Below are positions 3,554 to 22,768 of a stretch of DNA of 24,586 nt, one piece after another. Source of the DNA: a virus (lineage: Duplodnaviria; Heunggongvirae; Uroviricota; Caudoviricetes); IMG/VR virus record IMGVR_UViG_2698536454_000001, positions 1 through 24,586 of that record. One strand, given 5' to 3'. The translations under genes were made by a program, and so were the position numbers. Every line of letters begins with the position of its first letter. Position 1 is the first letter of the stretch. The notes beneath the pieces are model-generated. The model saw only the letters and a list, made by a program, of their open reading frames with translations, did not search any database and was not told the origin of the DNA.

Positions 3554-3925
3554 TTATTGCTCGCTTAACTTCTGCTTCAGCAAGTAACCTTCAAGCATCC
3601 AGATTTTGTTTACGGCATTCTGCCGGGCAATCTTCCGACCAATTTCTGCATCAAAGTTTTCCTGGCTTGCACAGGCACTCTCTCCGGTGACGGTGAAGCC
3701 ATTGCGCAGCACCAGGACGCAGAACGTCAGCAGAGAAAGTGATTCGTGCGGCTGGTAGTTTACCTCTCCGCCAGTATGTTTCGCTTTTATGGCTTTGCCA
3801 AAGGCACCATCTTCTGCTGTGAAATATGCCTCCTGAGCAATAATGCCTTCGATATGGTCTGGCGTAACGCGCGGTGCCGTTTTGCCTTTCTCAACGATTT
3901 CTTTTTCGATTTGCTGGTCGTTCAT
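3554..3925 (-). CDS. conserved small phage protein (123 aa), possibly Gp49/Sf6 gp66-like
   Basis: ATG 3925 with AGGTGAG RBS. Family name is a weak recollection, not verified. Confidence 0.6.
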   Translation of the reverse strand: MNDQQIEKEIVEKGKTAPRVTPDHIEGIIAQEAYFTAEDGAFGKAIKAKHTGGEVNYQPHESLSLLTFCVLVLRNGFTVTGESACASQENFDAEIGRKIARQNAVNKIWMLEGYLLKQKLSEQ

Positions 3926-3936
3926 AATCTCACCTT

Positions 3937-3960
3937 AAAAAAATGCCCGGCGAACCGGGC
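3937..3960 (-). terminator. intrinsic terminator (minus strand) directly upstream of the 3554..3925 RBS
   Basis: GCCCGG-ttcg-CCGGGC hairpin followed on the minus strand by a run of seven U. Confidence 0.6.
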
Positions 3961-4123
3961 GAACTGGAAGCAATGAGTTATGCCTTCCGTGGCTGTACGG
4001 GTTTACAGCATGAAGTCATCGCAATGGCGTCCTGCTGTAAAAAGGGCGGTGATAGTCCTTCAAGGGAAACCATCACCGCCAAGCACCTGGAACTTCTGGC
4101 ATCACGGTCCTTAGGCGTGATTC

Positions 4124-4200
4124 TGGCGTGGCATGCAGGATTCGAACCTGCGACCAACCGCTTAGAAGGCGGTTGGTCTGTCCGACTGAGCTAATGCCAC
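4124..4200 (-). tRNA. tRNA-Arg (anticodon UCU), argU-like, with one C-C mismatch in the D-stem
   Basis: Reverse complement folds as a 77-nt cloverleaf: 7-bp acceptor stem GTGGCAT/ATGCCAC, anticodon stem ACCGC/GCGGT with loop CTTCTAA, T-arm GCAGG-TTCGAAT-CCTGC, encoded G-CCA 3' end. D-stem GCTC/GACC has one mismatch. Confidence 0.85.
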
Positions 4201-21157: not shown

Positions 21158-21178
21158 CAAAAAAGCCCGCAGCGCAGG
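21158..21178 (-). terminator. intrinsic terminator right after the stop of 21180..21719
   Basis: GCCUGC-gcu-GCGGGC hairpin (one G-U pair) followed by six U on the minus strand. Confidence 0.6.
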
Positions 21179-21179
21179 C

Positions 21180-21719
21180 TTACCAAAACTTGTACCACGG
21201 GGATTTATCCTTCAATGGACAATCCTTCCATCGTGTGGCCAACCATTCATATTCTTTAAAATATGTGTTTATGTTTTCTTTTTCTCTAATGGCTTGTATA
21301 AGAGGTAGCGCAATCTGATAGTTATTTACAACGGAGCTGTAAAATACTTCCTTAATCATGGTCTCATCATAAGTTTTCCGCTTCACGCTCACAGCCATGC
21401 GTTCGTAGAAACCTAGACAGTAAATTATTTCTCTCTTCTCTGTCTTTTCTTCATCCGTAAGATCAGCCTGCCCATTGCTTGGATACATATAAGAGCGGAA
21501 TGATTTGTTCGATTCGTGAATGCGGCGCATAGTAGATAGGCCTTTCTTATAATCTACATCAAACCTGCTTTCACCAAGGAATACTGAAGTGTGTACTTTT
21601 CTCGCTGTATTTACATTATAAATAATAGTAGCGATAGCTATGAACAAGCCAAGCGAAACCGCGACTGCACTTACGATTTGAGCCACAGCCATGGCAAATT
21701 GCATTTCTTCACTTAACAC
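21180..21719 (-). CDS. membrane-anchored protein of unknown function (179 aa)
   Basis: GTG 21719 follows GGAGA (alternative ATG 21704). One N-terminal transmembrane helix (AMAVAQIVSAVAVSLGLFIAIATIIY), then a charged soluble domain; AT-rich. Confidence 0.6.
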   Translation of the reverse strand: MLSEEMQFAMAVAQIVSAVAVSLGLFIAIATIIYNVNTARKVHTSVFLGESRFDVDYKKGLSTMRRIHESNKSFRSYMYPSNGQADLTDEEKTEKREIIYCLGFYERMAVSVKRKTYDETMIKEVFYSSVVNNYQIALPLIQAIREKENINTYFKEYEWLATRWKDCPLKDKSPWYKFW

Positions 21720-21734
21720 AAACTGTCTCCAGAC

Positions 21735-21758
21735 ATGAAAACGGGGCCTAATGGCCCC
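21735..21758 (-). terminator. intrinsic terminator directly upstream of the 21180..21719 RBS
   Basis: GGGGCC-auua-GGCCCC hairpin followed by GUUUUC on the minus strand. Confidence 0.55.
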
Positions 21759-21894
21759 GTCATTAAACTATCCGAATGTTAAACGCCTTCGTACTCGTCA
21801 AATTTTCTCATGTGGGCTCCTCCTGTATCGGTGCCTAATCGCTATGGATCACCCGTGAGGTAATAGTACGCTATTCACCTGCAATCTGTACAGA

Positions 21895-21920
21895 ATTATT
21901 TAAAGGCACATCCCTGTGCC
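21895..21920 (-). terminator. weak terminator-like hairpin after the antirepressor gene
   Basis: GGCACA-ggga-UGUGCC followed by UUUAAAUAAUU. Confidence 0.35.
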
Positions 21921-21928
21921 GCCGCCCG

Positions 21929-22615
21929 TCAGAAGAACCCTGCCTTGTCATTGATGTACTCTGCGTGAGTCTGGATATCACGCAGGCATTTGCTCACACC
22001 GACGATGTAGCAGAACATGGTGGTCAGTTCCGCCGCTGCGCCCGATACGTCGTGCCCGTCGTCCTGTAACTGGTTCAGCAGATTCATCAGCAGTGAGTTC
22101 TCCGTCAGGCCGAGAACACCAGACGGCGAGTGAATCAGGCTGCGGTAGCCGGGCTTCAGTGGGGCACTGTAGGTTTTGTTCTCTATCTTCATCGCCTGCA
22201 TTACTGCTGACGCCGTGGCGTTGGCTACCTGGTCGGCAACCATCTTTATGCGTTCTTCCTGCGGGAGCGAGTTTTTAATGTAACTTCCGGTGCGGCGGAT
22301 CTGAGGAAGAACCTCACCTGTAACCCATTTACGAAAGCGGTAGGGGATAGTGCCTGGTGTCACCGCATCGCGGCAGCGGAGGATCAGTGTGTAGAGGCCT
22401 GACTCGTTGATAATATTGGTTTCGCCTTGACGGCCTAAGTTAAATTTAGCCCTTTCATCATCATCAAGAGATTTTATTGACATAGTGGGGTTTGTCAGTT
22501 GAAGAGCTTTAATAACGTCTTTGGCAACAAACCAAGGATTTCCATCAATAACAATGGCTCGAATGGTTGCTTCTGATTCAAAATGAAAAACAGATGGGGT
22601 TACGTTAGCAGTCAT
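21929..22615 (-). CDS. Bro-N domain antirepressor (Ant-like), 228 aa
   Basis: Track ORF 21929..22768; ATG 22615 follows AAAGGTGA. N-terminal Bro-N signature (FHFESEATIRAIVIDGNPWFVAKDVIKAL). C-terminal 85 aa homologous to the product of 22929..23186. Confidence 0.75.
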   Translation of the reverse strand: MTANVTPSVFHFESEATIRAIVIDGNPWFVAKDVIKALQLTNPTMSIKSLDDDERAKFNLGRQGETNIINESGLYTLILRCRDAVTPGTIPYRFRKWVTGEVLPQIRRTGSYIKNSLPQEERIKMVADQVANATASAVMQAMKIENKTYSAPLKPGYRSLIHSPSGVLGLTENSLLMNLLNQLQDDGHDVSGAAAELTTMFCYIVGVSKCLRDIQTHAEYINDKAGFF

Positions 22616-22768
22616 AGTGATCACCTTTGTAGTTAGGTTAATCACCACTACCGACGCCAATCGGTTGGTGGTGAACTGTGCAGGGTTGGCGTAACCGGCT
22701 ACAAAGGACCCGGCGCACCTTTCGGTGCCCCCACACAGCCCACCATAGAATAGGTGCGCTTTACACAT

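Follow-up and report, generated by a model that had tools for sequence, protein, structure and literature searches.

The main finding of this study is that the DUF4760 membrane-protein gene of a Caudoviricetes genome (IMG/VR record IMGVR_UViG_2698536454_000001) is preceded, across an intrinsic terminator, by an unannotated gene of only 10 codons, and that this arrangement is conserved well beyond the phage in which it was noticed. The stretch analyzed, which we call the window, is one strand of 24,586 nucleotides (nt) resembling a Uetakevirus (phiV10/TL-2011b-like) prophage of Escherichia coli, and all our evidence is comparative and computational. We are highly confident of the anatomy, i.e., that the micro-gene and the terminator are real and that together with DUF4760 they make up a conserved module. 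Our reading of what the module does is more tentative: we favor, as plausible rather than settled, a two-gene cassette of peptide and DUF4760 in which the peptide is a trans-acting, antitoxin-like partner, and not a classic attenuator. The elements of the module in the window are the following.

21817..21824, minus strand: Shine-Dalgarno (SD) sequence AGGAGGAG of the micro-open reading frame (micro-ORF), 5 nt (CCCAC) before its ATG, from sequence
21779..21811, minus strand: micro-ORF of 10 codons plus TAA, encoding MRKFDEYEGV, unannotated
21737..21760, minus strand: intrinsic terminator with stem ACGGGGCC/GGCCCCGT, loop ATTA and tail TTTC, from the inverted repeat and folding
21727..21730, minus strand: GGAG ribosome-binding site (RBS) of DUF4760, 7 nt before its GTG, from sequence
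21180..21719, minus strand: DUF4760 gene, 179 amino acids (aa), GTG start, from Pfam

Conservation of the micro-gene

The codons of the micro-ORF are ATG AGA AAA TTT GAC GAG TAC GAA GGC GTT TAA. A preliminary description of the locus had noted AGGAGGAG 5 nt 5' of ATG 21811 opening MRKFDEYEGV, a GGGGCC/GGCCCC hairpin 18 nt past the stop codon and, immediately after the hairpin, the RBS and start of a 179-aa membrane protein. All of this is present, with GGAG at 21730-21727 and GTG at 21719, the start that RefSeq also uses; we add that the full stem has 8 bp and that its T-run is short.

DUF4760 homologues were gathered without reference to the micro-ORF, from IMG/VR, exact-protein look-ups and GTDB species genomes. 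Those retained for the lineage set are 42-99% identical to the window protein and come from Escherichia, Klebsiella, Serratia, Pantoea, Yersinia, Buttiauxella, Xenorhabdus, Enterobacter, Kluyvera, Atlantibacter, Dryocola, Franconibacter, Entomohabitans, Morganella and Pectobacterium. In each of the lineages found by protein homology alone (22/22), an SD, a 10-12-codon ORF, a hairpin and the DUF4760 start follow one another in that order, the SD being of the GGAGG/GGGGG type throughout (22/22). When loci found by peptide patterns are included, the micro-ORF stands 5' of DUF4760 in 111/111. The peptides share the consensus M-[KR]-[KR]-x-(F)-D-E-[FY]-[DE]-G-[FVL]—variants include MRKFDEYEGV, MKKFDEYEGV, MRKFDEFEGF, MKKFDEFDGF, MKKLFDEFDGF, MKKWFDEFDGF, MTKAYDEFDGF, MKRMDEFEGC and MRYSDEYEGL—and the peptide type follows the DUF4760 clade (…YEGV, …FDGF, …WEDY). 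Stop codons are mixed, either TAA or TGA.

The pattern of substitutions is that of a coding sequence. The last six codons and the position of the stop are the most conserved part of the micro-ORF, and across lineages the entropy of the six core codons is 0.21, 0.24 and 1.25 bits at codon positions 1, 2 and 3, respectively, with ~1.55 bits in the flanks (18 nt 5' of the ATG and 21 nt from the stop codon on). Compared with the window copy, the Klebsiella copy has four synonymous changes and one R-to-K replacement, in a leader that has acquired insertions and a spacer that cannot be aligned. Because of this three-base periodicity with synonymous third-position changes, we conclude from the alignments that the micro-ORF is a translated gene selected at the level of its peptide, and for its translation, as for the layout of the cassette and the terminator, we regard this comparative evidence as direct.

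Among complete E. coli genomes, a nearly identical copy of the micro-ORF block occurs in 52 of 5426, and no feature is annotated over the micro-ORF in these 52 RefSeq genomes. The hairpin and DUF4760 accompany it in ~41 of them and are both missing from the other ~11, which are of the IAI39 type: there (L001:2657-3397), the micro-ORF and promoter are kept and a 211-aa unrelated phrog_1349 gene comes next, the junction lying in the spacer at the window equivalent of ~21766. The leader (21600-22000) has no match in Rfam at E<=10, nor does it have one at the gathering threshold, at which the whole window was searched; elsewhere in the window, Rfam recognizes only isrK, C4 and one tRNA. The peptide strings were not found in our literature search, the sole match being unrelated. 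Two other accounts of the ORF were rejected. An origin as the 5' remnant of a cargo gene is contradicted by the uniform length and stop across lineages, and read-through of the stop codon into the hairpin left no pattern visible by eye in the two sequences inspected. A separate observation concerns L079, a Franconibacter/Enterobacter pulveris scaffold, in which the stop has changed from TAA to TAC and the peptide is extended to 15 codons (MKKAFDEFDGFYIMK), leaving 7-9 nt before the hairpin; DUF4760 is apparently intact.

More distant members were reached by protein homology search and then through the encoding contigs. All of the DUF4760 genes at 24-36% identity (4/4) have an SD-led micro-ORF (L139, L140, L141 and L143), and L147 is a fifth locus.

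L139, Pseudomonas: MNKRGMDGWEDY, stop directly adjoining the DUF4760 ATG
L140, Nitrotoga: MNHYFSDTWDD, 5-nt gap to the DUF4760 start
L141: MKNYPRDGWEDY, 64-nt gap to the DUF4760 start, no obvious terminator
L143, AT-rich locus adjoining an Abi_2 gene: MVNLILDEFDGF, terminator present
L147: MKRTLNDGWEDY, adjoining the DUF4760 ATG

Judging from these loci, a peptide with an acidic/aromatic C terminus is the family-wide constant and the terminator is a lineage-specific addition. We consider the peptide to be primary and the terminator to have been added because distant relatives keep the peptide ORF without a terminator, and the absence of the terminator there argues against transcription attenuation as the reason for the ORF.

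The terminator and the search for an antiterminator

A simple terminator scan did not list the 21737..21760 hairpin, and direct folding and comparison were used instead. Its arms, at 21760-21753 and 21748-21741, are 8 nt long and 100% complementary, with a folding free energy (dG) of -17.9 kcal/mol, and its T-run reads TTTC (GTTTTC when the stem is taken to be the 6-bp GGGGCC core). Across lineages there are at least nine different stem sequences, each perfectly paired (among them ACGGGGCC, GCGGGGCT, GAGGCGGGG, AGGGCGGG, GCGGAGC, GATCGGAGG, GAGGCGGAGA and AGGCGGGT), with dG from -11.5 to -18.9 kcal/mol and then 4-8 T; the hairpin has no T-run in 2/22 lineages (L070 and L081). Pairing was assessed by per-sequence hairpin extraction, not by a formal covariation statistic, and RNAalifold run on a MAFFT alignment of the hairpins returned no pairs, the 3' arms being mis-registered. 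The distance from the micro-ORF stop to the stem has a median of 18 nt and is 16-20 nt in 16/22 lineages, the extremes being 7, 11, 37 and 51 nt. A promoter between hairpin and DUF4760 was considered and rejected, as the ~20 nt available leave no room for it.

Folding of 24 leaders, as RNAs ending at the 3' arm, gave the terminator an ensemble probability of ~1.0 in 22 of them, the value for the window being 1.0. Forbidding the terminator costs ~8-15 kcal/mol in 22/24 leaders; for the two exceptions, the cost is 2-3 kcal/mol. Constrained folding with the possible partners of the 5' arm revealed no conserved antiterminator in the 24 leaders; in RNAs too short to contain the 3' arm, the upstream segment with which the 5' arm pairs differs from one lineage to another. 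The peptide family has no repeated or regulatory codon class either. From the size of a ribosome footprint, a ribosome terminating at the median distance of 18 nt would sit clear of the stem.

The preliminary description had also seen the terminator-against-RBS arrangement recur at 3937-3960. The arrangement does exist on the minus strand—GCCCGG-TTCG-CCGGGC at 3960-3945, then A, seven T at 3943-3937, AAGGTGAG, and ATG 3925 of a 123-aa ORF—but there is no comparable SD-led micro-ORF, and the parallel is superficial only. This second site is located 3' of tRNA-Arg(TCT), with two hairpin/T-run terminators in 3923-4200 (minus strand), the second of which adjoins the RBS.

A proposed trans-acting peptide and its rivals

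The downstream partner matches Pfam DUF4760 (PF15956) over residues 19-164, its only Pfam match, at 107.5 bits (gathering cut-off, 25; E 8e-31). Invariant residues of the protein include E50/S51/R52, E106/R107 and R145. The predicted structure (AlphaFold2 [AF2], predicted local distance difference test [pLDDT] 93) has one N-terminal hydrophobic helix followed by an all-helical domain, and this C-terminal domain is probably cytoplasmic because positive residues follow the N-terminal helix. A fold search with the model pointed to EP-domain-like and GST-C-like helical bundles; Foldseek against the PDB returned nothing significant.

We read the module as a two-gene cassette because the linkage of DUF4760 to the peptide is obligate, while orphan peptides exist: peptide ORFs occur without DUF4760, and in the loci examined DUF4760 never occurs without the peptide. 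The pattern FDEFDGF-stop retrieves 46 loci from IMG/VR, where a rough estimate from pattern degeneracy alone predicts fewer than one chance match. Thirty-three of these combine the micro-ORF with the hairpin and a DUF4760 gene, at identities as low as 35%, and the remaining 13 include remnants in the P2 hotspot, lambdoid ORFs and Karamvirus ORFs. In the P2 hotspot, the ORF and terminator are kept and DUF4760 is absent in L128; L104 and L114 are similar remnants; and in L121 and L126 the start codon, hairpin and DUF4760 are all lost. In lambdoid contigs, the region separating a Q-like gene from the holin gene contains small ORFs that read M(L)DEFEGFDEFDGF or MFDEFDGF. In T4-like Karamvirus (L135-L138), a 13-21-codon ORF of the form MFSLRKFD…FDEFDGF lies just 5' of gene 47; in CC31 (NC_014662), it is found at L135:719-784 and overlaps the end of a-gt.2 in another frame. 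Its versions are MFSLRKFDAEDVDVFDEFDGF in CC31, …EEDFEFFDEFDGF in PG7 (the only genome in which it is annotated, as a 21-aa coding sequence), …EEDFDFFDEFDGF in Pet-CM3-4 and MFSLRKFDEFDGF in AS6, where an in-frame deletion of eight codons has left the C terminus in place and the last nine residues match the prophage peptide family. Two nt separate the stop of the Karamvirus ORF from a hairpin. This sequence resemblance suggests that the Karamvirus ORF could be an anti-DUF4760 mimic.

Two sets of observations on such free-standing ORFs deserve mention in their own right. First, in the lambdoid IMG/VR contigs L094, L107 and L091, the ORFs MFDEFDGF and MLDEFEGFDEFDGF, the latter a tandem motif, are located between Q-like antiterminator and holin/endolysin genes, in the late-promoter leader region, and each has a short hairpin directly 3' of it. 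Second, large IMG/VR phage contigs (L156, L159 and L154) contain orphan 8-9-codon ORFs, MRDGWEDY and MACDGWEDY, some with a strong SD, which have the Pseudomonas-type ending and may be chance matches or further orphan peptides.

The mechanism that we propose is as follows. A promoter of the cargo slot that lies 3' of the Bro-N antirepressor gene (ant) would drive a short leader, on which a very strong RBS would ensure translation of the 10-codon MRKFDEYEGV gene. Because there is no competing structure, the terminator would act as a fixed partial stop, setting a high peptide-to-protein ratio, with a peptide-only RNA of ~120 nt as the main transcript and DUF4760 mRNA as the minority produced by read-through. 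The peptide would most probably be a short-lived, antitoxin-like partner that neutralizes DUF4760 in trans through the cytoplasmic helical domain of the protein, and DUF4760 would be freed when phage infection stops host gene expression; on this view, lytic and lambdoid phages would carry their orphan peptides as counter-measures. The role in trans and the function in defense are what we infer, and the phage-defense reading is supported because DUF4760 is found in the P2 gpA-gpQ hotspot, adjoins Abi_2 in L143, and shares the ant-downstream slot with the YafO toxin, which occupies it in phage TL-2011b. The P2 gpA-gpQ site is a defense hotspot, and loci composed of "DUF4760 + StbA + Plasmid_stab_B" are listed for it in Table S5 of its description (PMC9122126).

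Several observations weigh against such a trans-acting, defensive partner. The terminator of the window may be weak or leaky owing to its short T-run, the fairly constant spacing between stop and hairpin could point to a role in cis, and a conserved C-terminal motif beside the stop fits an arrest peptide equally well. The hairpins that follow the putative phage mimic ORFs mean that the phage copies could be cis devices too. An anti-SD element and an RBS-covering extension, described below, hint at possible control or tuning at the RNA level. As for defense, no family among the PADLOC-DB 2.0 hidden Markov models matches DUF4760 (0 families at E<=1), and our literature search uncovered no functional account of DUF4760, only incidental mention.

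Some of these observations lead to a serious rival that we nonetheless consider less probable, i.e., that the micro-ORF is a cis-acting leader whose nascent peptide delays or stalls the ribosome as it reaches the last codons, perhaps sensing a signal or the state of translation. In Enterobacterales, the position of the ribosome would remodel the structures around the terminator, namely the spacer, the anti-SD and the helix covering the RBS, while in Pseudomonas-type loci the ribosome would occlude the adjacent DUF4760 start codon or couple to it. Such a leader would account for conservation concentrated in the last six codons and the stop position, for a micro-ORF that is always immediately 5' (in distant relatives the gap to the DUF4760 start is 0-64 nt, and elsewhere the hairpin lies a median of 18 nt away), and for a hairpin within 2 nt of the orphan phage copies too. 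In the 11-residue clade (clade B), moreover, the terminator is flanked by the anti-SD-like spacer TAACCTCT, able to pair with the micro-ORF SD, and by a TCTATGA...TCATGGA extension that covers the DUF4760 RBS. Arrest leaders with terminators are known, msrD being an example (bioRxiv 10.1101/2021.11.29.470318). Nevertheless, no conserved alternative RNA structure joins the ORF to the terminator, the spacing varies over 7-51 nt, and the terminator is absent from distant members. The anti-SD and RBS-covering features are missing from the window's clade beyond a 4-bp ATGA/TCAT, and terminator-less relatives have nothing comparable. Mixed TAA/TGA stops reveal no dependence on a single release factor, and the variation in N-terminal length among the orphan copies (8-21 aa) is unusual for tunnel-dependent arrest.

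The idea of a trans-acting peptide can also be taken further, to an unrecognized class of two-component defense or exclusion system in which the 10-12-residue peptide would be a labile inhibitor or ligand of membrane-anchored DUF4760, although we regard this as doubtful at present. The modeled DUF4760 helical domain resembles the EP domain of plant EDS1-family immune proteins, and in such a class the T4-like and lambdoid orphan peptides would serve counter-defense.

It is improbable that the peptide acts on a separate target, such as a host or phage protein recognizing acidic tails with a terminal aromatic residue, and is merely co-transcribed with DUF4760, which would be independent or cooperate only indirectly. 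This would explain the free-standing copies that lytic phages, lambdoid phages and P2-hotspot remnants have without DUF4760, as well as the IAI39-type loci that keep the peptide before the unrelated phrog_1349; what would be left unexplained is the presence of the peptide with every DUF4760 across 24-99% identity and several bacterial orders, and a peptide type that follows the DUF4760 clade.

The remaining two explanations are very improbable even when taken together. The preliminary description had seen a classic attenuator layout here, and the order of leader ORF, terminator and gene is indeed that of trp/his/pheA-type systems, in which stalling at regulatory codons switches between antiterminator and terminator. 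The translated leader ORF and the intrinsic terminator withstood scrutiny; the rest did not, in that there is no run of regulatory codons and selection bears on the peptide sequence, there is no conserved antiterminator and the ORF overlaps no segment competing with the terminator, distant members have no terminator, and DUF4760 is not biosynthetic. Least probable of all is a fortuitous SD-ATG-stop in a non-coding element whose hairpin merely ends ant or a small RNA, for which one could cite the 10 unannotated codons and the nearby isrK and C4 small RNAs, but which is contradicted by the three-base periodicity, a peptide kept across genera while its flanks diverge, the lack of an Rfam match at E<=10, a separate hairpin for ant at 21920-21905, and the occurrence of the module without ant in other contexts.

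Genomic setting and relation to known systems

On the minus strand of the window, the order 3' of the structural genes is isrK, C4 antisense RNA, Bro-N antirepressor, a 209-nt interval, DUF4760 and terminator. The features that surround the cassette are as follows.

21929..22624, minus strand: Bro-N antirepressor gene (ant), the upstream neighbor, Pfam Bro-N E 5e-20
21905..21920, minus strand: hairpin GGCACA-GGGA-TGTGCC, then TTTAAATAATT, from the inverted repeat
21863..21892, minus strand: promoter-like element, -35 TGTACA at 21892-21887, 18-nt spacer, -10 TACTAT at 21868-21863, from positional conservation
21848..21864, minus strand: imperfect palindrome ATTACC-TCAC-GGTGAT in the -10/start-site region, from recurrence
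21163..21181, minus strand: cassette-closing terminator AAGCCTGC-GCT-GCGGGCTT plus T6, from the terminator scan

In identical RefSeq loci, ant is annotated as a 696-nt coding sequence with the same stop. The hairpin at 21905..21920 is the probable end of the ant transcript. The end of ant, this GGCACA/TGTGCC hairpin and the -10-like TACTAT are common to ~470 complete E. coli genomes, among which homology stops a few bases past TACTATTACCTCA and different cargo follows; the comparison indicates that the interval 3' of ant is a mosaic cargo slot with its own promoter. Rfam places isrK at 22846-22770 and the C4 antisense RNA at 22750-22664 (both minus strand), directly 5' of the Bro-N antirepressor and overlapping its extended frame, which amounts to a P1/Gifsy-like immunity arrangement in a Uetakevirus-type prophage.

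The promoter role of 21863..21892 is suggested by position. A TAnnAT hexamer before TACC is kept in place across divergent loci (TTGCAA-17-TAATAT in L057, TTGCAG-17-TAAAAT in L059 and TTGACG-16-TAAGAT in L063), and homology between cargo types breaks just 3' of the element. In the window copy, the assignment as a promoter is weak: its match is only 8/12, the promoter scan did not report it, and its ancestral -35, TTGCAG at 21884-21879, has been displaced by a 7-nt spacer deletion. Window and AST20-type copies are without seven spacer nt that are present in EFF60 and IAI39 (compared with L001 and L003; window 21869-21886), so that TTGCAG-17/18-TACTAT has become TTGCAG-10-TACTAT, and expression of the window copy, with its shortened spacer and displaced -35, may differ from that of the others. 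ATTACC-N4-5-GGTAAT recurs at the position of the palindrome in L004 and L005, which have other cargo, and in the DUF4760 loci L057, L063, L073, L080 and L087 from several genera, and may mark either an operator or the edge of a recombined segment.

Several known systems resemble the cassette in part. In type III toxin-antitoxin (TA) loci, the terminator regulates antitoxin-to-toxin levels, and a toxin gene after a short palindromic terminator is the criterion by which such loci are recognized (PMC3401426). As in ToxIN, CptIN and TenpIN, the cassette has a promoter, a small upstream element, an intrinsic terminator and an effector gene directly next, and like them it is carried on mobile elements, where type III loci act in abortive infection. 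ToxIN escape phages carry antitoxin mimics, which are paralleled by the orphan peptide ORFs of Karamvirus. Unlike in type III loci, however, the upstream element is a translated 10-12-codon ORF and not a set of tandem RNA repeats (Tandem Repeats Finder, minimum score 30, returned 0 rows for 21650-22000), the effector is a membrane-anchored helical DUF4760 and not a ToxN/CptN/TenpN-type endoribonuclease, and the terminator is missing in distant members. The cassette also resembles type II TA loci and prophage morons, with a small gene followed by a larger one behind one promoter, bracketed by terminators, in cargo or defense hotspots, and it shares with type II TA an upstream partner that is found as an orphan and a downstream partner that never occurs alone. 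Nevertheless, a product of 10-12 aa is far smaller than the proteic antitoxins described so far and has no room for a DNA-binding domain.

Leader peptides offer a second set of comparisons. A short SD-led leader ORF, an intrinsic terminator and a regulated gene are what attenuators have (trpL, hisL and pheL; msrDL and ermCL), and conserved residues close to the stop are what arrest-peptide leaders have (ErmCL, MsrDL, TnaC and SecM). Unlike in attenuators, there are no codon runs and no conserved antiterminator/anti-antiterminator, the stop is ~18 nt short of the hairpin, and the peptide is kept where the terminator is absent. MgtL, which depends on a Mg2+ riboswitch and on Rho and contains proline-acidic motifs, is likewise a very short Asp/Glu-rich leader ORF, with these residues close to the N terminus, located 5' of a membrane-protein gene. 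In our peptides, by contrast, the motif D-E-[FY]-[DE]-G-[FVL] is at the C terminus, and no alternative structure was seen. Altogether, the cassette is closest to type III TA in layout and to type II TA in the type of its product, and falls outside both on their tests of membership; it has no counterpart in Rfam, PADLOC, genome annotation or the literature searched.

These findings have several implications. A gene of 10-12 codons that is invisible to annotation pipelines is nonetheless as conserved as its 170-aa neighbor across Enterobacterales, Pseudomonas and betaproteobacteria. For leaders at large, a leader ORF followed by a terminator should not be classed as attenuation before an antiterminator has been looked for. 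The micro-peptide also provides a concrete handle on DUF4760, an uncharacterized family often encountered in the P2 gpA-gpQ hotspot as well as in further cargo slots of prophages. Should the peptide prove to be a trans neutralizer, a micro-peptide type would be added to the TA and abortive-infection repertoire, together with a new phage counter-defense; if the cassette represents a new class, the peptide would be the smallest known proteic antitoxin, with natural phage-encoded mimics. If it is instead an arrest peptide, it would be a new compact sensor of translation.

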